Shown piece by piece: positions 11,471 through 61,530 of a stretch of 61,530 bases of DNA; within the stretch, counting starts at the first letter, position 1, and each line of letters starts with the position of its first letter. Source of the DNA: a virus; UHGV virus genome UHGV-2167453; one strand, written 5' to 3'. The notes below the pieces were generated by a model. The model had not been told where the DNA came from. It was given only the letters and a program-made list of their open reading frames with translations, and ran no database searches. Position numbers and translations under genes: made by a program.

Positions 11471-11785
11471 TTATTCTCCTTTTTCTCTTAGGTGTAATTC
11501 TTCAATTTCGTGCATCATTTTTGTAATCATTCCATTGCCACCGAGTTTGTGATACGCATTATACATTTCACAGAAATTCTCGTAAGCATACGATGGGATT
11601 GAACCAAGTCTCATATACTTATCATGGTATTCAATCAACTGGACTCTAAGTAAAAGCATCGTGCCTTCACTATTTGCATCCCTGTCTTTCTTCTGATTTT
11701 TTAGCATCCATACCACATAACCCATAAGCGCAGTTAAAATGATTGGCAACGCTGTGATATAGGTCTGATAAAAAAAGTGTTCCAA
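11471..11785 (-). CDS. Membrane protein (N-terminal TM then LKNQKKDRD basic patch), possible holin partner
   Basis: 104 aa; same architecture as 27460..27774. Confidence 0.45.
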   Translation of the reverse strand: MEHFFYQTYITALPIILTALMGYVVWMLKNQKKDRDANSEGTMLLLRVQLIEYHDKYMRLGSIPSYAYENFCEMYNAYHKLGGNGMITKMMHEIEELHLREKGE

Positions 11786-11799
11786 TGGTTTAATCCTCT

Positions 11800-11958
11800 C
11801 TATTCTTCGGACTGCTCCGCTTTTTCGGTATCCTCTCCAACAATGTAGTTATACTCATCAATTGAGATAACGCCCTTTTCCACTCTCTTCTGTAGCTGCG
11901 CCTTTGTCACTCTGTCATTCTCGTACAGTCTTTTCAGACTTTCTACTAAAATTCTCAT
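11800..11958 (-). CDS. xkdX: XkdX-family small protein
   Basis: 52 aa MRILVESLKRLYENDRVTKAQLQKRVEKGVISIDEYNYIVGED... matches XkdX pattern (..YxxGxWTKExVxxxVxKGxITxxEYxxITGE). Confidence 0.55.
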   Translation of the reverse strand: MRILVESLKRLYENDRVTKAQLQKRVEKGVISIDEYNYIVGEDTEKAEQSEE

Positions 11959-11975
11959 TGCTTATACCGCCTTTC

Positions 11976-12305
11976 TTAAATAAGTCCTTCTTCCATTAAC
12001 TGTGCTGTGTACTCGTCAATTTTAAGGTTCGCGTACTCAACCATTGCGTCTGTAGGAGCTTCATCTCCCTCGTAGTCCAGATAACTCTCAGGATCAGCTT
12101 TGATCTGTTCAGCTGTCAGTGAGTGAGTGCGGAAGATACATCCATCATACTCATATGCCGTAGACTCTTTTACTTCACCGTCTTCCAGAGGTTCTGTCTC
12201 TGCAACCTCTCTTTCGTTTGTCAGAATAACCACATCTCTTGCTCCGTTCTCAAGCTCATAGATGCTTACTTTCTCCTGTTTCTCCGAAAATCTCATTGTA
12301 TTCAC
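11976..12305 (-). CDS. Hypothetical acidic protein (XkdW-position)
   Basis: 109-aa ORF between RT and xkdX-like gene. Confidence 0.35.
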   Translation of the reverse strand: MNTMRFSEKQEKVSIYELENGARDVVILTNEREVAETEPLEDGEVKESTAYEYDGCIFRTHSLTAEQIKADPESYLDYEGDEAPTDAMVEYANLKIDEYTAQLMEEGLI

Positions 12306-12306
12306 G

Positions 12307-13461
12307 TTATTCTCCTTTCGTGGCTCGTCCGATTACTTTCTTAGCTGCCTTATTTATAGTTTCAATGTGGTATCGTCTTTGGAATCTCTTACTATCCGTG
12401 TGTTTGATTGCTCCGTATCTTGCGACACAACTTCTTGCAAGTTTCAGTGGAATCTCTTTCCCGTGGCAGACATACGAATATGCTCTCTTGTAAGTTCTCC
12501 TTGCTTTCAAGAATGTTGATGAACGTATCGTCAGATTCTTTCTTGATATCTTCCGTCCAAGAATATCTACATATTCTGTTTGCAAATCGATAAAATGAGC
12601 TGTCTCCTTTAATTCAAGCCTTAACTCTTTGCTGATATATTCGTTAAATCTTTTCACTAGCATTTTCATATCTTTCTTGCTGTGACCGAAGAAAATGATA
12701 TCATCCATCTGAAATAGCACATGGCTTACAAGCCTTACTTTCTTGACTGTTCCATCTCTCCTCTTGCGAACCTTGAACTGTTGGCTTGCGGAAATATAAG
12801 CCTTGCTCAGATAGTAATTTGCTAAGAACTGGCTCAAATATGAACCTATAGAAAGTCCGTATTCAAATGTATCAATCAAGAAGAACACTAAATGAAGAAG
12901 TCTGTCATTCTTTACATCACGTTTCAACATCTTTTTCAGAACATTTTTATTTATATTTTCATAATAATGCCGAACGTCTGCTTGCCATGCCCAACGAATA
13001 TTTTTATCTGCCAACCATTTCTTGATAGCTCCAGCTCCAAATTCATTACCTTTACGTTTAACTGCTCCGCATTGATAAAAGCCGAGTTTCTTTTCAAACA
13101 ATTCTTTCAAGCCGTATACTGCGATATAATCGTAGATTTGCTGTTTAATATCTTGGATTCCGATATTTCGTAGCTTTCCAGTACAAGAATCTTTCTTGAT
13201 TCTGTAACGGATTTTCTTCACGATATACTTCTGTTCCAGGATTTCTTGACGGATACCATCTATGACAGTTTCTACAATGCCGTCAAGCATATATCTGCTT
13301 TCTTGAGCCATATCCATCAAGAACTGATACGGAAGTCCCGTGTATTCCATGAACATGTGAATTGTGTCGCTACGTGTGATCTTATTGCTGATACAGCTCC
13401 ATGTTGCTTCTGAGATTAATTCTCTGCTTGTTATATCAATGTTCTTGCAGTATCGTTTCAT
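12307..13461 (-). CDS. Reverse transcriptase of a diversity-generating retroelement (DGR RT)
   Basis: RT motifs: GLSIGSYLSQFLANYYL (motif 4 with DGR-type IGxxxSQ), VLFQMDDIIFFG (motif 5 xxDD), WAWQADVRHYYENI (motif 3); adjacent TR/VR pair. Confidence 0.85.
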   Translation of the reverse strand: MKRYCKNIDITSRELISEATWSCISNKITRSDTIHMFMEYTGLPYQFLMDMAQESRYMLDGIVETVIDGIRQEILEQKYIVKKIRYRIKKDSCTGKLRNIGIQDIKQQIYDYIAVYGLKELFEKKLGFYQCGAVKRKGNEFGAGAIKKWLADKNIRWAWQADVRHYYENINKNVLKKMLKRDVKNDRLLHLVFFLIDTFEYGLSIGSYLSQFLANYYLSKAYISASQQFKVRKRRDGTVKKVRLVSHVLFQMDDIIFFGHSKKDMKMLVKRFNEYISKELRLELKETAHFIDLQTEYVDILGRKISRKNLTIRSSTFLKARRTYKRAYSYVCHGKEIPLKLARSCVARYGAIKHTDSKRFQRRYHIETINKAAKKVIGRATKGE

Positions 13462-13639
13462 TTTAGTTCCGAGGGACTTTCGGTTTTTCTACTAGCCCCA
13501 GCCTATACCAATTCGTATAAACTGCCAGTACCACTGCCGTGGCACCAGCTCCCTTTCTTGTTACTTATTTAAGACCTTTCGGTACAACTTATTGTTGTGA
13601 AATGCCGTGCAAGCACCCAGCGGTGCGTAATGTTTGCAT

Positions 13640-13741
13640 AATAAAATTCAGAAGGCGTAGTTCCAATTCGTCCTAGAGACCTCGTTCCTGAGATTCGAGT
13701 AGCAGAAACCGCCATTCGTGCCATTCCTGAGATTCCCACGC
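13640..13741 (-). repeat. DGR template repeat (TR), intergenic between target gene and RT
   Basis: 102-bp near-copy of 13837-13938 (offset 197); coding-strand adenines are the only mismatched positions. Confidence 0.85.
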
Positions 13742-13780
13742 CAGCACGACAAGTCCTGTATTTTCTATTCAGCTTAATTA

Positions 13781-13795
13781 AGGGGAAGAGCCCCT
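13781..13795. promoter_or_regulatory. GC-rich hairpin (agggg-aagag-cccct) ~45 nt downstream of VR/stop codon, candidate DGR homing hairpin
   Basis: 5-bp G/C stem; T-run lies on plus strand so not a minus-strand terminator. Confidence 0.45.
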
Positions 13796-13836
13796 CTTTT
13801 TTTCTGCGAAAAAATTCACCCTTGAAAGGTGGCGGG

Positions 13837-13938
13837 AACTAAACGCAGAAGGCGCAGCCCCAATTCGCCCAAGAGACCACGTCCCAGAGAGCCGAGAAGC
13901 AGAAACCGCCATTCGCGCCATTCCTGAGATTCCCACGC
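13837..13938 (-). repeat. DGR variable repeat (VR) covering last ~32 codons and stop of 504-aa target gene; GC-rich IMH at its 3' end (about 13828-13850)
   Basis: Alignment to TR: 12 mismatches in 93-bp core, all at TR-A positions (T on plus strand). Confidence 0.85.
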
Positions 13939-15353
13939 TTCAAAGCTTCTCTGTAACCAGTATCGGTACCGCCTTTATAGAGTTTGTCTCCAACACCAAC
14001 AGAATCACCAATTCCAACCGTTTTTAGATAATCAACGCCAGTCTCAAGATCAATGTCGATATCTCCAATCCAACAGTCATTCGAGTCAATCATGTCCACT
14101 GTAACAACTTTCTTCCATCCTGAAGCTGTCGCAGACCAAGCCACACCTTTTGGACGCACATAATAGTCAACCATACTGGCTGTGGTTTTATTCCATAACT
14201 CATTCATGGAGATGAAGTTAGCTCCAACGCCCTCCTCGATACCACCGAGCTTGAATGCGTGCTTGCCATCATTGGAAATGTATCCGTCAGCTCCAAGCAC
14301 TTCATCTGTTGTACCTGAATGAAGTGGCATTGATGAAATGTAAGTATCCGCAGTGATTGTCATGCCAGTTTTTTCAACGTAGACCTTGCTGTTTGCTGTA
14401 TCCGCAATAGATTCGATCGCTGTAATTCTCACATTCTTTGCAATTGCATTCATGCTTGCCTGTCCACGATCAACATTGTTATTAGCTCCCGGAGTACCGA
14501 TTGATACAGTTTCTCCGACATAGAAGTTCTTCGCCTGAGCTGTTGTAATTACCACGTAATTTACATTCTCGCCAGTTTCAGCAACTTTGTACTGGTGATT
14601 GCCAGTATCAACACAACCTCTAAAGTATTTCTGACTATTCTTTGTCGCATACTTAATCCACAGCATACAGAGCAGATATGCAGTACGCTCCGAACCGGAA
14701 CCGACATATCCAGCACCTTTCTTTTCCAGCTCACCGATTGCCAACTGTGCAGAAACAAAGTTGTAAATCGCATTTCCAGAAGAACTGTATGCGATTCCAT
14801 CAATCAATCCGGCATAATACTTTGTGACCATGCCATATCCAAGATTCTCATCTGTCCACGGAGTTGGAATGGTGCAGCCAACTTCCGGATGCGGCGTATC
14901 AGAAAAATGAATGATGTAATATCCGTCAAACTCTTCCTTGCCCCAGTAAGTTGGTGGAGTCATGATTCCTACATCAACCTTTCCTATATTGGAAAATCCG
15001 TTACCACCTTTTATTGCAACTGGAATCTTATCACCGGCATCATTCACCGTAAAATTACAGTCAATGTAATTGAAAGCATTTCTTCCAGCGAAATCATCCT
15101 GATTCTTCGCCTTGTCTGTGGAAGGAACTGCAACCAGTCCTTTTGAAGCGTTCAGTTTTTCTCCAGCTGGATTCGTTGAGTTTTCGTAATTATAAAACTT
15201 TGTGGAGAACAACTCTCCTGTTGCCATATTCGCCCAGAAGTTTTTCCAGTCGAATTTTTCTACATCCGTCACCATTGTGCGAATAATTTTACACATCTCA
15301 AGAATCTCCTGTGATGTTTTTTCCATAGCAATATCTACAGATGCCTGTGCCAT
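13839..15353 (-). CDS. DGR target protein: tail-fibre/receptor-binding candidate with C-terminal variable (C-type-lectin-like) region
   Basis: 504 aa; ends ...RGNLRNGANGGFCFSALWDVVSWANWGCAFCV encoded by VR; located between tail genes and RT/lysis genes. Confidence 0.7.
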   Translation of the reverse strand: MAQASVDIAMEKTSQEILEMCKIIRTMVTDVEKFDWKNFWANMATGELFSTKFYNYENSTNPAGEKLNASKGLVAVPSTDKAKNQDDFAGRNAFNYIDCNFTVNDAGDKIPVAIKGGNGFSNIGKVDVGIMTPPTYWGKEEFDGYYIIHFSDTPHPEVGCTIPTPWTDENLGYGMVTKYYAGLIDGIAYSSSGNAIYNFVSAQLAIGELEKKGAGYVGSGSERTAYLLCMLWIKYATKNSQKYFRGCVDTGNHQYKVAETGENVNYVVITTAQAKNFYVGETVSIGTPGANNNVDRGQASMNAIAKNVRITAIESIADTANSKVYVEKTGMTITADTYISSMPLHSGTTDEVLGADGYISNDGKHAFKLGGIEEGVGANFISMNELWNKTTASMVDYYVRPKGVAWSATASGWKKVVTVDMIDSNDCWIGDIDIDLETGVDYLKTVGIGDSVGVGDKLYKGGTDTGYREALKRGNLRNGANGGFCFSALWDVVSWANWGCAFCV

Positions 15354-15816
15354 TATTATATCCTCCTATTTTCCATCATCATAAGTTACTCTAAGTCCAC
15401 CAAATTCGTTAATCGAGAATGAAATCCCTTTTCCGTTTGCTTTTTCTTCATTTAGTAAACTAATTTTTTCTTTGTTTGTTTTGATCTGCGCCAAGTCTTC
15501 TTCCGAAATTCCACCTAAATCACCATCAGACGGAGCCGGAGGAATCAGGGTTTTCTTTTCGATTTCACCTGTTTCTTTGTTCTTTACATTTAAAAATGAA
15601 CCTTTTCCAATATCACTCGTTGCCATGTCGTACCTCCTTACTCAATCGAGATTCCTCTTGTCTCCGGGTTGTATGTGCTGTTCCTGCGGTAACTGGATTT
15701 TCTTTTAGATACTCATTCACAGCTGTTGTCACCTGTTCTTGAGTGACAGGATTCTTTATTTTTTCATTGACAATCGCCAATACATCTTCTGCTTTCAATG
15801 CCATAATTCTCACTCC

Positions 15817-16392
15817 TTAAACAATAGATATGCCACGGGTTGACGGGTCGAATTCCAACTTCACAGCTACTTTAGAATCGTAGGTGTTCAACAACTGTTC
15901 AATCAAGTCCTTGTTCTTTTCCGCGATCTGCTGAGTAGTTTCCAATCCCTCAAGGACTTCTCCCTCAGCCCATGTTGTGTTCCACTCTGTCGTAAGAGTG
16001 CCGTCTGAATTTGACTTTTTGGCGCAGACAGAGAAGTGGATTCCGTCTGTATATTTCGTTACATTTCGACCAAGAACCCAAGAGAATGTGATGTAGTCTC
16101 CGCTTGTCACAACATCTTGAACAATGTAGGAATCACCCTCTTCATCTGCTTGATTCGGACTTTTGTAGTTGATGTACAGATTCATGGTCGCAAGATTGAT
16201 GTTGTTTCCAACAATTTTCGGACACTTGAAATACTTTCTTTCAGCCTTTTCATCTGACTGCACACCGAAAAGTCTCTCTGAATCAGGAACATTAATCGTT
16301 CTTGTCTCTGGGTCAATCATAAGAATGTCATTGACTGGCTTTACAATCTCCTGTTCTGCCAATGCTACAGCTAATGCTTCTTGTTCCGTCAC
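15817..16392 (-). CDS. Hypothetical tail/baseplate-region protein
   Basis: 191-aa ORF in tail module; smaller ORFs 15366..15626 and 15613..15813 lie downstream. Confidence 0.35.
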   Translation of the reverse strand: MTEQEALAVALAEQEIVKPVNDILMIDPETRTINVPDSERLFGVQSDEKAERKYFKCPKIVGNNINLATMNLYINYKSPNQADEEGDSYIVQDVVTSGDYITFSWVLGRNVTKYTDGIHFSVCAKKSNSDGTLTTEWNTTWAEGEVLEGLETTQQIAEKNKDLIEQLLNTYDSKVAVKLEFDPSTRGISIV

Positions 16393-42893: not shown

Positions 42894-42982
42894 GAACTGA
42901 GCCGGAAGATATTGATCTATTGCATAGAGTGGAGAGTTTCACGAATACAAATAACAGGAAAGAGAAAAGGAGGAAAAACACA

Positions 42983-43744
42983 ATGAAAGCACAGAGAAAT
43001 TGGATCACACCAGAGGGAAAGAGTTTTGTCAAGTATGAGAACATGATGGAGCAGCCGCACTTGTTAGTTGCTGGAGCTACCGGATCGGGAAAATCGGTTG
43101 TAATTAATGGAATTATCACAACTGCACTGTTTGATGCACCGTCACAAGTACAGTTCATTCTTATCGACCCGAAGAGAGTGGAACTCGTAGACTATAGATA
43201 TCTTCCTCACACGGCTTTCTACGCATCCGAACCGGCTGAGATGGTCAGAGGATTGCAAATGGCTATGAATACCATTGAAACGAGATATACACAGATGCAG
43301 AGAGCGCACGAGAAGAAATACCATGGGACGCAGTTATACGTAATTATTGACGAATTAGCGGACTTAATGACCACGAACAAAAAACAGGTAATGCCACTGA
43401 TCCAGCGCATCGCACAAATAGGACGTGCCGCCGGAGTCCATCTGATCTGCGCGACTCAGTGTCCACTTGCCAAGGTCATACCGACAGAAATCAAGGTCAA
43501 CTTTGATGCCCGTGTGGGACTGCGTACGAGGTCAGCACAGGACAGCAGAAATATACTAGGCTTTAACGGTTGCGAGGATTTACCGCGCTATGGACAGGCA
43601 TATTATATGAATCCTGATAGTGGAGTAAAAAAAATAGTTGTTCCGATGTATGACAAGGGCGAAACATGGCGTTTGATTAATCACTGGATGCAGCAGCGCC
43701 CACCGAAAAAGAAAGGATTCTTTGAAAGATTGTTTAGAATATAA
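42983..43744 (+). CDS. FtsK/SpoIIIE-family P-loop ATPase (DNA translocase-like)
   Basis: Walker A LLVAGATGSGKSV, Walker B LYVIIDELADL; start MKAQRNWITPEGK with SD aaaggagg. Confidence 0.7.
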   Translation: MKAQRNWITPEGKSFVKYENMMEQPHLLVAGATGSGKSVVINGIITTALFDAPSQVQFILIDPKRVELVDYRYLPHTAFYASEPAEMVRGLQMAMNTIETRYTQMQRAHEKKYHGTQLYVIIDELADLMTTNKKQVMPLIQRIAQIGRAAGVHLICATQCPLAKVIPTEIKVNFDARVGLRTRSAQDSRNILGFNGCEDLPRYGQAYYMNPDSGVKKIVVPMYDKGETWRLINHWMQQRPPKKKGFFERLFRI

Positions 43745-56429: not shown

Positions 56430-58139
56430 CCACCTCCAACTTCTTCAGATCCTCAATAAGCCACGGTTCGGAGTCTGGCCATTTAATCATTGGAAAATCA
56501 ACATCAGCACAATCATCCAAACAAAAACAATCACAATTATTTCTTGACCAAAAAACATCAAGTTTGTCTGGCTTCGCGCTGTATACGTATAAATAATTTG
56601 TCTTGTCTCTTGCAATATATTCATACTTTTCTATGAGATACTCCAAAAACTCTCTGTCTCTCTTGCTTATCACTGGCTTTTCGATGTACTCTGACTCTGC
56701 CCACTCTCTTCTTGCCTTGTCACAGTCTTCCATCTTCAAAAACAAACAAGCTGCACATGGAGCGTCACAGCAATCCGCAACTTCATTCGTATTTTTATTA
56801 ACCCTAAAATCGTGTCCTTTGCAAGCAATCTCCACAATCTCTGTTGCAAACCTCTCTTTATTCTTCATCCTTATTACTCCTATCCTTAGCGCACTCATCA
56901 CAATCACCATTCGCAGCTCCGAAGCAACCGCAACAAGCATTTGTCTGCTCTTTATTTTTCACCTCTTCCAACAATCCATTCACAACCAGTTCGCACTCAA
57001 TCTCGGTTGCTGTCCGCTTGTCGCTGAATTTACAGTTTGGATTCTTGTGGATTCGTGCATCCTTGATCGGCCATTCAGATTCCGTAAAATGCTTACTGTC
57101 CACAAACATTACTCTGTGTCCGTTCTTCACGCAGAGATAGTAACTCTCTGCGCTTTTCGGAAGTCCTCGGCAAGGCTTGAACCCGAACCGCATAAACTCA
57201 CTTGCCTTTACTACTGGTTTTAGTCTCATTTCTGTTCCCTCTTTCTTCTTGCCATGACCATGTGCTTTCCGCTTTTCTGCAATTCACCATAAATCGAATC
57301 ACATATTGCTGATATCCCAATGTTTCTCGACAGGCTCTCAAAATAATTTGTATCCGTCTTTTCCCATGTCCTTGTTGGTGCGTGGTAAAATCTTCCGTCT
57401 GCTGTCTCTACCATCGTCTGTTCCTCACATGCTGTAGGTGTGTAGAATTTCACACATATACCTCGTACACCTGATTCGTAACATCTGATTTTGTCACCGA
57501 TATCAAACCTTCTCATTTTTCTCTTCCTCTGTGATACTTCACTTTATTGTTTTTGATTGCATCCAATACAGTTCTTTTCAATTTTTCATCTGTAATCGCT
57601 ATTACTTTCCCATGTTCCAATCTTCTTTCTTCAACAAGATATATAACGTTGCTCACCTTGTCCAAATCAAGTATTGCGATATCTTCCGGATGCATAAACA
57701 AAATACGTTTATTTGACAGCTCTATTTTTAGCCTGGCTTCTTCAAGCGCTCTTATAAAGTCTTTACCATTCATCTTTTCTTTCCTTTTCAACTAAACAGT
57801 TATGACCGCCGGATTTACAACGCCGTCACCGTCATATCCATAATCTTTGTTGTGCCATTTTCTTAGACATTCTCCGTATTCCCAACATTGAGAAAGAATA
57901 CTGACAGCTGCTCCGTACATAAATCTTGAGATTCCCTCTTGATCCGCTTCATGGCTCAGCTGCTTTGCATTATCAACAATAACTTTCATTTCGTCTTCTT
58001 CTGATGCTTCTATCTTCTCTTCCATCATTCCTGCCCATCTTTCAGCATATGTAAAACACGCTCTACCGTATGGATTACTGTTTTTTTCATACCAGTCTTT
58101 ATATTCCTGTTCTTTACCTTTTACAATTTTCATCTTCAT

Positions 58140-60140: not shown

Positions 60141-61124
60141 CTTCTCGAAAGGAGCCGATATATCTTTGCCCGGCCGGAGCTCCGTCTCCTTTCTGTAATT
60201 TAATGTTATTTATAGCAAAGCGTATCAACCAACTCTGCTACAAGATCTACGCACTGTTCACTTATGCTATCTCGCTGCGTCACATCTTCTGCACAATTAA
60301 TATCGTTTGCATCGACAAATTCATGTAGTTTGCAAAGTACCTGTTCTTCTCTTACTGTCATCATTACTTCACCTCATTCGCAAGCTGGAATCCCATTCTT
60401 GCCACATTCCTAAGATTCTCTCTAATCAGTGCTTTGTTCGGGCTCCTGTGTGTATCAAGAAATTTCCACAGCTCTATCTGTTCACTTGGCATGTTTGCGA
60501 CATAATCAGCTGTGTACTCATACTCAGCTTTTGCGACTTTCAAACACTGAATCATGTAATCTATCTTTTCTCCTGTGTTCATCATTGCTTCACCTCGTAT
60601 CTAAATTCCATAAGCGAGAAGAATTTCCCATCGTGATTTTCACAGTAGTTTTTCAGCACATCCATGCAAGAATCACTATTTCCAATTTCTTCTTCATGCA
60701 CGACTTTTCTTTTTTCATCCACTACAAGGCAATAAATTTTCTGTGTAACCTCGACTTCTTTCTTCTCATGGTCTTTCTTCCACTGCTTGAGGATTTCGAT
60801 AACTTGTTCAGGGTATTTTCTAAAAATTTATTGCAGAAAAGATTTTCACCATTATTAAGTCTACTGAACTTACATTCAGAACATGAAATACTTTCACACA
60901 TTTCACACTTAAGCCTAATTGCTTCTTCTGCTGTCAGTTCTTCTGCCAATCCATTAAGCATTTCGTCTGCCCACTTATAGTCATCTTCTACAACTTTGTA
61001 GTAATCATCATGCACGGATTTAATCGCTACGATCTTTTTCTTTAACATTTCATCAACTGCATATAAACCACCATACAGCTCCGTATTTTTTAAGTCACTC
61101 CTGACTCTGACCTTATCTCCTACT

Positions 61125-61530
61125 TTATATCTCATTACGCTTCTCCTCATTAACAACTTTTCCGTCAACCATCGTGTACCATGTATCTTCTTTGATTGTC
61201 TCTCCGTCAACACGAACCATCACAGCATCTTTGAGTTCCCACATATCTTCTTTATAATAGTTATCTAATTCTTTTCCTTTACACTTCCAGTCTGCAAGGA
61301 CAAGGAACGAGCCTTTCACGCCTTTTGCTTTTCCTTTATATCCCCAAGCCACAGCGACAGCGTTAGGGCTTTCTGCTGAGGATGCTCCGTAGTATCCTGT
61401 CGCTGAGGATGCTCCACAGTTTCCTGTCGCTGAGGATGCTCCGTAGTCTCCTGTCGCTGAGGATGCTCCTTTGTATCCTGTCGCTGAGGATGCTCCGTAG
61501 TATCCTGTCGCTGAGGATGCTCCTTTGTAT
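61125..61530 (-). CDS. 3' part of the same repeat-containing protein (repeats then ...AWGYKGKAKGVKGSFLVLADWKCKGKELDNYY...NEI); consistent with circular join to 1..503
   Basis: Frame of ORF 61125..61352 is open upstream through the repeats and reads GASSATGYY... in same frame as window start. Confidence 0.55.
   Translation of the reverse strand, partial: YKGASSATGYYGASSATGYKGASSATGDYGASSATGNCGASSATGYYGASSAESPNAVAVAWGYKGKAKGVKGSFLVLADWKCKGKELDNYYKEDMWELKDAVMVRVDGETIKEDTWYTMVDGKVVNEEKRNEI
61369..61530. repeat. Tandem 27-nt repeat array (about 6 units) at window end, phase-continuous with array at window start
   Basis: Last unit ends ...gctcctttgtat and window start begins cctgtcgctgagg, reconstituting the unit exactly. 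Confidence 0.9.

Follow-up and report, generated by a model that had tools for sequence, protein, structure and literature searches.

Does the repeat pair lying beside a reverse transcriptase (RT) gene in the gut virus genome UHGV-2167453 belong to a working diversity-generating retroelement (DGR), and, if so, how might such an element operate with no recognizable accessory gene? We addressed these questions in the complete 61,530-nt stretch of viral DNA, hereafter the window, in which a preliminary description had proposed an RT, a template repeat (TR), and a variable repeat (VR) at the 3′ end of a tail-fibre-like gene. The element is a real and recently active DGR, a clean but ordinary example of a well-known system type. 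It is very probably a functional, accessory-free DGR of the "target - TR - RT" kind, carried by a siphovirus-like gut phage of ~61.5 kb with relatives in Lachnospiraceae genomes. The coordinates of its components are collected in Table 1.

Table 1. Features of the retroelement cassette and its surroundings (positions in the window)
Feature	Position	Strand	Description
Target gene	13839..15353	-	504 aa; C-terminal part is a variable protein of C-type-lectin fold; last large gene of the tail module
Variable repeat (VR)	13846..13938	-	93-nt mutagenized core, codons 472-502 of the 504-codon target; TR homology continues to 13841
VR 3′ boundary, IMH-like	13839..13853	-	invariant GCCTTCTG, then TGC GTT TAG; fixed difference from the TR end
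Hairpin CACCTTTCAAGGGTG and T-run	13817..13831	-	terminator-like, from a terminator scan; 8 nt past the target stop codon
Two more intergenic hairpins	13780..13814	-	A/T-rich, 13798-13814; G/C-rich, 13780-13797; positions conserved across relatives
AGGACU motif and 5′ arm UGUCGUGC of the TR-enclosing helix	13744..13757	-	conserved motif, then arm of the long-range helix
Template repeat (TR)	13644..13741	-	non-coding, intergenic, with an in-frame TGA; mutagenic core 13649-13741 with 22 adenines
H1, 3′ arm and AUUUC	13598..13626	-	H1 hairpin, 13613-13626; 3′ arm GCACGGCA, 13603-13610; conserved AUUUC motif
H2 and H3 stem-loops	13574..13598	-	short; H3 with a GAAA tetraloop; conserved A-rich single strand after
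Structured RNA domain, 112 nt	13459..13573	-	directly upstream of the RT start; H4, 13524-13549; H5, 13500-13523; H6, 13473-13499
DGR reverse transcriptase	12307..13461	-	384 aa, pI 9.9; matches PHROG 1423 and 8ub7_A
109-aa ORF	11976..12305	-	translationally coupled to the RT; strongly acidic, pI 4.1

Adenine-specific transfer from template to variable repeat

A repeat search recovered the pair as a 98-nt direct repeat (TR 13644-13741, VR 13841-13938) with 86% identity. The near-copy at an offset of 197 nt that had been described earlier is therefore present, but the 102 bp assigned to it overshoot its limits: homology ends at 13644, and 13643 is mismatched at a non-adenine position. Base-by-base comparison of the 93-nt core (13649-13741) located mismatches at 12 of the 22 template A sites and at none of the 71 other sites (hypergeometric p of about 1.6e-9), reproducing exactly the earlier count and list of positions (13658, 13661, 13662, 13671, 13674, 13682, 13686, 13689, 13694, 13695, 13700, and 13719). 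At all 12 the plus strand carries T, that is, A on the coding minus strand. These values lie within the usual DGR thresholds, by which at least 75% of mismatches fall at A and mismatches number at least 5 (PMC11792537). The amino acid substitutions reported previously do stem from adenine-site changes; they involve ten VR codons rather than eight, R>W and T>A each occurring twice. Substitution of TR adenines cannot create a stop codon within codons 473-502, and the AAY, AGG, ACG, TAC, and GAG codons of the TR cannot become stop codons. No third copy of the repeat, that is, no further VR, was found within the window. Two more adenine-site differences lie outside the core, at 13647 and 13648 (TGA ATT in the TR, TGC GTT in the VR); because they are identical in every relative examined, they represent a fixed boundary difference rather than mutagenesis.

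The same bias is seen among relatives of the phage. In 56 distinct TR/VR pairs from related loci, changes affect 829 of the 1264 A sites but 31 of the 4258 non-A sites, the A-site changes comprising 399 A>G, 306 A>T, and 124 A>C substitutions. The TR is identical in the window and in four related loci (L001, L002, L009, and L137), the VRs of which differ, and where the TRs of L003, L004, and L005 carry non-adenine changes, their VRs show the same ones. Copying is thus one-way, from TR to VR, with a hypervariable VR and a constant TR.

At the protein level, the codons with A in the TR coincide exactly with the 15 columns of highest variability when 22 close homologues are compared, and column entropy amounts to 0.94 bits in residues 471-504 versus 0.19 elsewhere. 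The protein closest to the target (P0121) differs from it by 6 residues, all within the VR. The contig that encodes this protein (L137), from a near-identical phage in another sample, shows only 6 differences over 12307-15353, every one of them at a TR-A site within the VR (chance about 1e-13). As the two cassettes are otherwise identical, this diversification is newer than any other cassette mutation. Variation among related phages is restricted to TR-adenine codons, as the preliminary description had anticipated. The family, located in Lachnospiraceae and also in other Bacillota genomes, is already represented by about 100 related contigs in IMG/VR, and the sole DNA-level relatives in the annotated phage database are two unannotated human-faecal "Bacteriophage sp." records.

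Reverse transcriptase and target protein

The preliminary description gave the open reading frames, the RT motifs (GLSIGSYLSQFLANYYL and FQMDD), and both repeat translations correctly, and the 384-aa ORF is, as had been claimed from its motifs, a DGR-type RT; both its sequence and its fold show this. It matches the PHROG 1423 reverse transcriptase family (3e-54), and its best PDB sequence match is 8ub7_A, the Bordetella phage RT (bRT), which is a DGR RT according to the PDB description returned by Foldseek. The predicted model (pLDDT 93.5) likewise has 8ub7_A, the RT of a DGR RNP, as its top Foldseek match (E 2.8e-16, TM 0.74/0.86). The IGSYLSQ and QMDD motifs align to IGSLTSQ and YMDD of bRT, in which I181, G182, and Q187 contact the template and the incoming base, and D138, D215, and D216 are catalytic (bioRxiv 10.1101/2023.10.23.563531). 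The RT thus retains both the catalytic and the adenine-mutagenesis residues of bRT; the aligned positions are, respectively, I205, G206, Q211, D162, D253, and D254, all invariant in 51 homologues except Q211, which is nearly so. The RT is 56 aa longer than the 328-aa 8ub7 chain of BPP-1, and its N-terminus carries an invariant Cys pair (C5 and C23). Among its distant tblastn matches are the RTs of the DGR-carrying phages LBR48, VHML, and ANMV-1 and of crAss-like phages, which carry DGRs as well.

The C-terminal fold of the target, which the preliminary description had suggested might be a C-type lectin, is indeed one; it is nearest to DGR variable proteins, with the Thermus aquaticus variable protein TaqVP (PDB 5vf4) among the closest known systems, and the VR is displayed on this fold, in keeping with the C-type-lectin or Ig-like folds of DGR targets. 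The target has no match in Pfam or NCBIfam, and its sole PHROG match is a family of unknown function. The gene order in the window is target/VR - TR - RT, in agreement with the earlier account, and the cassette has tail genes on one side and lysis genes on the other. The "tail-fibre-like" label, however, had been derived solely from this position, and it is weakened by some relatives in which the same cassette does not follow tail genes but has packaging genes and capsid genes as its neighbours. By analogy with BPP-1, the target is probably a receptor-binding protein.

Template RNA, repeat boundary, and proposed mechanism

The sequences flanking the TR form conserved RNA helices. The TR is enclosed by a helix of 8-10 bp (13744-13751 with 13603-13610), in which 89% of cells are paired across 27 distinct loci, against 20-48% in a slid-partner control by anchored pair count; all 10 of its 10 pairs show two-sided changes. 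We used the anchored count, since a mismatched-partner permutation test of this long-range helix was uninformative, many lineages sharing similar arms. The 112-nt domain also covaries, being 93.7% paired versus 32-45% in the slid control, with two-sided changes at 22 of 25 pairs. The model of this domain (R1) has one match in the window (119 bits), and 36 related loci likewise have a match ahead of the RT; the domain is absent from Rfam, against which 11500-16000 gave no match at E ≤ 1. Its helix H6 closes a loop holding a near-invariant UAGUAG (13489-13494) and CCGAA. A CCGA/UCGG pseudoknot across H6, invariant in near relatives and absent in distant ones, was dropped as unsupported. Compensatory variants in H2 and H3 are apparent by eye. 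The H1 hairpin is missing in many clades of the family, and for this reason we make no claim for it as a fold-back primer equivalent to the TR:Sp duplex of BPP-1. A search for the priming nucleotide, with RNAduplex and by eye, yielded only A/U-rich, unconvincing matches.

In BPP-1, the TR flanks pair, and a stem-loop and unpaired adenosines follow (Handa et al., bioRxiv 10.1101/2023.10.23.563531). The TR-enclosing helix described here parallels this upstream:downstream "cPRT Stop" duplex and may be its functional equivalent; after it come the H2 and H3 stem-loops and then a strand rich in A, as in a layout of the "cPRT Stop" type.

At the other repeat, close relatives all share one VR end and one, different, TR end. 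By analogy with BPP-1 (PMC8632793), the VR 3′ boundary may act as an IMH, although it is A/T-rich whereas the BPP-1 IMH is G/C-rich. The hairpin just downstream of the VR occupies the same place as the BPP-1 DNA hairpin that aids DGR target recognition; a hairpin at this position is family-wide, but is present also in DGR-less relatives. The G/C-rich member of the remaining two hairpins resembles a terminator when read on the plus strand.

Taken on the BPP-1 paradigm, the element would work as follows. An RNA would be transcribed from the minus strand across the TR and its flanks (~13459-13757), pairing of the upstream segment with the downstream spacer would enclose the TR, and the 112-nt domain would follow. 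Primed in cis, the RT would copy the TR, misincorporating at template adenines only, and the cDNA would take the place of the homologous VR core (93 nt) in the target 3′ end, presumably by the BPP-1 mode of integration. Up to 15 codons on the ligand-binding face of the C-type lectin would be re-randomized, corresponding to about 4.7e12 peptides, with no stop codons, and the fixed differences at the 3′ boundary would make the transfer one-way.

The element resembles the BPP-1 DGR (mtd-avd-TR-brt) in several respects. Transfer is A-specific and one-way and is directed at the 3′ end of the gene for a protein of C-type-lectin fold. The two RTs have a common fold, the IGxxxSQ motif, and a YMDD-type box, which reads QMDD in the present RT. 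A hairpin lies past the VR, and a temperate-type phage carries the cassette in its tail-to-lysis region. The element differs in being without avd, in a TR core of 93 nt rather than 134 nt, and in a spacer bearing the 112-nt three-helix domain. Other DGRs of human gut phages with Firmicutes hosts (viral clades 1, 4, and 6 of Roux et al. 2021, PMC8144416; Faecalibacterium prophages, PMC11792537) likewise have tail-module targets with C-Lec VRs and widespread signs of recent activity, but the Faecalibacterium targets bear DUF6273 or are Mtd-like (PMC11792537), whereas the present target has no Pfam domain. In limited literature searching, we found no published description of the RT/target family or of the RNA domain.

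Accessory genes and alternative explanations

The Avd family (Pfam PF05635) was absent among the matches of ~55 small ORFs on both strands; the scan covered the flanking ORFs, ~45 minus-strand ORFs as concatenates, 10 plus-strand ORFs and, in part, shadow ORFs. None of the PHROG matches in the window indicates an accessory gene, nor did the ORF scans turn up HRDC or any other accessory gene that is known. Accessory genes are frequent but not universal in DGRs, avd being found in about 74% and HRDC, MSL, or CH1 in others, and Wu et al. 2018 report TR-RT without an accessory in 75/372 DGRs (29%; PMC5758913). The element has this known accessory-free "TR-RT" architecture, and as in Architecture A1 of that study the RT follows the TR, avd, HRDC, MSL, and CH1 are lacking, and the target is immediately upstream; Lineage 3A of Wu et al., by comparison, is from Bacteroides (PMC5758913). 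The absence of an accessory gene is consistent with Architecture A and so does not exclude membership among DGRs.

That the repeats are instead an ordinary duplication or gene-conversion tract beside an unrelated RT, from a group II intron, a retron, or a defence system, with a coincidental or compositional A bias, might be suggested by the profile searches. In NCBIfam, the RT matches best to TIGR04416, a model for group II intron RT/maturases (54.8 bits against a cutoff of 300), and the PADLOC DRT and retron models match only at E 1e-11 or weaker; both collections gave weak generic matches only. By Foldseek, however, bRT is a closer structural match for the RT than group II, retron, or DRT enzymes are, and the Rfam scan of 11500-16000 detected neither intron RNA nor retron msr/msd nor a member of any other family. 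With the adenine specificity found in the window and over the 56 pairs, an intergenic copy that is invariant while the coding copy varies, and a repeat-spacer-RT layout retained in about 55 loci, this explanation is vanishingly improbable, and we consider it effectively refuted. Very improbable, too, is a relic, in which the TR/VR pattern would record the past activity of an element that no longer works. Decayed copies do exist in the family, including one that has lost the TR through VR/TR recombination (L006), one with a frameshifted RT (L129), and one with non-adenine mismatches and a truncated RT match (L123), and no accessory protein was found here. Against this, the RT ORF is uninterrupted and no catalytic residue is missing, the TR and all conserved RNA helices are intact, and 6 adenine sites in the VR are the only ones at which the 3-kb cassette differs from that of the near-identical phage.

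A somewhat likelier, if still improbable, alternative keeps the DGR but makes it reliant on an unrecognized accessory, either the 109-aa ORF or a host factor. In 41 of 61 related loci, the gene directly after the RT is a homologue of this ORF, with identities as low as ~30%; the ORF is without a match in Pfam, PHROG, or the PDB, and reverse transcription in BPP-1 strictly requires Avd (PMC5758913, PMC6182149). On the other hand, the ORF is acidic, whereas Avd is a basic, nucleic-acid-binding protein with a mean pI of 9.5, and 29% of DGRs in Wu et al. have no accessory gene at all (PMC5758913). Moreover, in four loci (L133-L136) a target homologue is followed directly by a 107-aa homologue of the ORF and XkdX with neither TR nor RT. 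The small gene therefore belongs to the target/XkdX module and not to the RT, and we rejected it as a new DGR-specific accessory; in PBSX, the slot before xkdX is filled by xkdW. The accessory-free DGR that we favor has points against it as well, among them an RT that scores below threshold for Pfam RVT_1 (25.6 bits; gathering threshold, 29.6 bits), a prototype that needs Avd, and the base composition of the 3′ boundary. Reading the element against BPP-1, we nevertheless infer that it would function independently of Avd. It is conceivable, and we put this forward tentatively, that this clade of Lachnospiraceae phages has a true two-component DGR, made up of RT and RNA, in which the enlarged structured spacer, with its TR-enclosing helix and 112-nt domain, takes the scaffolding and positioning role of the Avd pentamer, and the extended, Cys-bearing RT N-terminus contributes to it. 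If true, mutagenesis would here be carried out by a compact module independent of Avd, and the RNA would represent a family not described before.

Tens of thousands of DGRs have already been catalogued. In the present case, a gut phage would keep re-randomizing the tip with which a probable receptor-binding protein binds its ligand, and may in this way follow changing host surfaces; two phages that are the same over a 3-kb cassette save for six template-adenine sites provide an unusually clean natural case of recent activity. The accessory-free family retains the RNA duplex that encloses the TR in the prototype, which depends on Avd, and has a large conserved RNA domain in addition, and is therefore a reasonable candidate for the study of DGR reverse transcription without Avd, as well as a candidate for a smaller engineering chassis.

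Adenine-specific repeats and the reverse transcriptase

By function and by every testable defining feature, the element is a diversity-generating retroelement (DGR). A repeat search recovered a single long direct repeat in the region (86% identity, spacing of 197 nt), and position-by-position comparison of its core placed each of the 12 mismatches between the template repeat (TR) and the variable repeat (VR) at a plus-strand T, that is, at an adenine on the minus strand, the coding strand of both ORFs. Mismatches affect 12 of 22 adenines but none of the 71 other positions (hypergeometric p = 1.6e-9), reproducing base by base the list in the preliminary description; the 102-nt limits proposed there for the repeat proved 4 nt too long, with position 13643 mismatched at a non-adenine. 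All 12 changes fall at codon positions 1 or 2 and alter ten codons, and the adenine-bearing TR codons (AAY, AGG, ACG, TAC, and GAG) cannot mutate to a stop, leaving ~4.7e12 peptides reachable. Two extra adenine-site differences, at 13647 and 13648 (TGA ATT in the TR vs TGC GTT in the VR), are the same in all relatives examined and are interpreted as a fixed difference at the boundary, not as mutagenesis. The proposed check for more repeat copies, run on the cgaatggcggtttc motif, returned the TR and VR and nothing beyond them.

Coordinates of the features discussed in the window
Feature	Position	Strand	Size
Reverse transcriptase ORF	12307-13461	minus	384 aa
3' RNA domain (three helices, directly upstream of the RT start)	13459-13573		112 nt
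TR-enclosing helix, spacer arm	13603-13610
TR-enclosing helix, partner arm	13744-13751
Direct repeat, TR copy	13644-13741		98 nt
TR core	13649-13741		93 nt
Direct repeat, VR copy	13841-13938		98 nt
VR core	13846-13938
Target gene	13839-15353	minus	504 aa
FtsK/SpoIIIE-family ATPase	42920-43744	plus
Tad4-like ORF	57792-58139	minus	115 aa
27-nt tandem repeat, window start	1-~540
27-nt tandem repeat, window end	~61100-61530

The reverse transcriptase (RT) scores 25.6 bits against Pfam RVT_1, below the 29.6 threshold, and matches PHROG 1423 "reverse transcriptase" at 3e-54. Its top sequence match among solved structures is 8ub7_A, the RT (bRT) of the prototype DGR of Bordetella phage BPP-1, described as "DGR ribonucleoprotein reverse transcriptase," with IGSYLSQFLANYY aligned to IGSLTSQLFANVY and QMDD to YMDD. 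The same entry is the top structural match (E 2.8e-16, TM 0.74/0.86) of an AlphaFold model built from 51 homologues (pLDDT 93.5), ranking above G2L4, group II intron, DRT9, and retron RTs; matches to group II intron, retron, and defence-RT models were weak. In bRT, I181, G182, and Q187 contact the template and incoming base, and D138, D215, and D216 are catalytic (bioRxiv 10.1101/2023.10.23.563531). By alignment, these residues correspond to I205, G206, Q211, D162, D253, and D254, each invariant or nearly invariant across the family, and the earlier assignment of a DGR-type RT is thus upheld by sequence, structure, and retained key residues. Distant tblastn matches (23-29% identity) are the RTs of Lactobacillus phage LBR48, Vibrio phages VHML and VP585, ANMV-1, crAss-like phages, and Faecalibacterium phage FP_Epona, several of which are known DGR carriers. 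The N-terminal extension (residues 1-40) holds K2, C5, K6, R13, C23, R30, D32, and Y40, a Cys pair among them, invariant in 51 homologues; the bRT alignment begins only at RT residue 102.

Variation and decay among relatives

Among 22 target homologues (82-99% identity), column entropy averages 0.19 bits over residues 1-470 vs 0.94 over residues 471-504, and the C-terminal columns that vary coincide exactly with the 15 codons having an adenine in the TR, adenine-free codons being invariant. Relatives in the virus contig database IMG/VR whose RTs are 95-98% identical carry identical TRs but VRs that differ, and then only at TR-adenine sites. The closest protein to the window's target, P0121, shows six residue differences, all within the VR. 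Its contig, from an independent run (ERR11554157), differs from the window at 61 positions over 13.5 kb, and within 12307-15353 at six only, each of which lies in the VR core opposite a TR adenine (probability of six out of six at such sites, ~1e-13). The expectation that variation would be confined to TR-adenine positions is borne out by these comparisons, which are taken as evidence that the element is functional and diversified its target in the recent past. In three relatives (L003, L004, and L005), non-adenine TR changes are mirrored in the virus's own VR, which shows that copying runs from TR to VR. Across the family, surveyed down to 33% RT identity in IMG/VR contigs and in genomes of Lachnospiraceae and other Bacillota, 56 distinct TR/VR pairs carry changes at 829 of 1264 adenine sites vs 31 of 4258 other sites.

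Hosts were assigned from the genome records holding the relatives. Outside the otherwise Bacillota range, an Akkermansia sp. MAG (L121, JAZRHL010000068.1) has an adenine-specific TR/VR pair on a 136-kb contig; mis-binning or a broader host range may explain this. Decayed copies were also found. In L006 (3700-3830; RT 94% identical), VR/TR recombination deleted 197 bp and merged the repeats into a single hybrid, whose 5' side is target coding sequence and whose 3' side is TR flank; the template is removed, and the protein ends at the TGA of the TR. The copy in L129 (2803-4010), a prophage adjoining radical-SAM and MutS genes, is decaying, its RT frameshifted into 174 + 225 aa, as is that in L123, where TR/VR mismatches show no adenine specificity (8 A, 6 G, 2 C, and 2 T) and the RT match is partial.

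Target gene, accessory genes, and genome context

The target has no Pfam or NCBIfam domain, its sole PHROG match is a family of unknown function, and its 714 homologues are unnamed. In the direction of transcription, it is preceded by terminase, portal, major head, major tail, tape measure, and tail protein genes and followed by a 109-aa ORF, XkdX, holin, and GH25 endolysin; this order makes the target the final large gene in the tail module. The preliminary description had it as a tail-fibre-like, receptor-binding protein: the location at the end of the tail module stands, whereas the receptor-binding role is a reasonable inference only.

No match to Avd, the accessory protein of BPP-1, was found in the flanking ORFs, ~45 small minus-strand ORFs, or 10 plus-strand ORFs. 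The acidic 109-aa ORF (pI 4.1) abuts the RT stop codon, and 41 of 61 loci carry it in the same place; as a retroelement gene, it was rejected because in L133-L136 the small ORF and XkdX come immediately after a target homologue (55% identity) in the absence of any TR or RT. The small ORF is therefore part of the target and XkdX module. With no Avd found and the 109-aa ORF assigned elsewhere, the element fits the accessory-free Architecture A1 (TR-RT), which accounts for 29% of DGRs, a lineage without avd having been noted (Wu et al., PMC5758913).

In L133-L136 (2400-4460), the cassette of target, small ORF, and XkdX sits between terminase and portal, and in L125-L128 (915-4480) between portal and a minor capsid gene. 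It occurs with or without TR and RT and seems to move as a unit; since its position after the tail genes is not universal, its virion location is uncertain. Elsewhere in the window, a 115-aa ORF in the phage early region matches Pfam PF25186 "Type I Thoeris inhibitor Tad4" (E 5.4e-33) and is a probable anti-defence gene, and an FtsK/SpoIIIE-family ATPase (E 1.6e-33) is encoded in the non-structural genome half, on the strand opposite to most genes. Both window ends lie inside the same 27-nt tandem repeat (CCTGTCGCTGAGGATGCTCC...), which encodes G-A-S-S-A-T-G repeats on the minus strand in a gene with a DUF7666 N-terminus, and the outermost 25-30 nt of each end are found again at the other. The window probably represents an entire phage genome of ~61.5 kb that is circular or permuted and was cut inside this repeat; relatives in IMG/VR measure 60-63 kb.

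RNA architecture and comparison with known DGRs

Three hairpins, one of them 8 nt past the stop codon and followed by a T-run, lie between VR and TR, and a conserved AGGACU motif follows them. The 8 nt that follow this motif pair with the spacer just before a conserved AUUUC, enclosing the TR. Across 27 distinct loci, 89% of cells in this helix are paired vs 20-48% with the partner slid, and 10 of 10 pairs are changed on both sides, in a count anchored on AGGACU and AUUUC with two anchors hand-set and eight loci without recognisable anchors excluded. This enclosure resembles the avd:Sp "cPRT Stop" duplex of BPP-1, and similar duplexes are reported for 207 DGRs having Avd (bioRxiv 10.1101/2023.10.23.563531).

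The 3' RNA domain has 96.6% of cells paired in 17 sequences, with 13 pairs changed on both sides; near-invariant UAGUAG and CCGAA motifs lie in the loop closed by its third helix. A covariance model from those 17 detects the domain ahead of the RT in 36 related loci and has exactly one match in the window; over all 39 matches, in an alignment fitted to the model, pairing holds in 93.7% of cells and both sides have changed in 22 of 25 pairs, counts that lean towards the model's structure. The domain matched no Rfam family, and a search for the priming nucleotide did not locate it. One relative has a second, weaker match to the spacer-RNA model ~5 kb downstream of its RT (L021:8978-9080, plus strand; 29 bits, E 3.6e-5), perhaps another DGR-type RNA or else a remnant.

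Compared with BPP-1, the element is without Avd and has an A/T-rich boundary, a shorter TR, a longer RT, and a target closer to the Thermus aquaticus variable protein TaqVP than to Mtd. Phage-borne gut DGRs with C-Lec-fold tail targets have been catalogued in very large numbers, the majority with signs of recent activity (Roux et al. 2021, PMC8144416; review PMC8632793), and ~100 contigs of the same RT/target family are already present in IMG/VR. The RNA architecture of this Avd-less clade is the one part that may be new, and we offer it as a lead rather than as a demonstrated finding.
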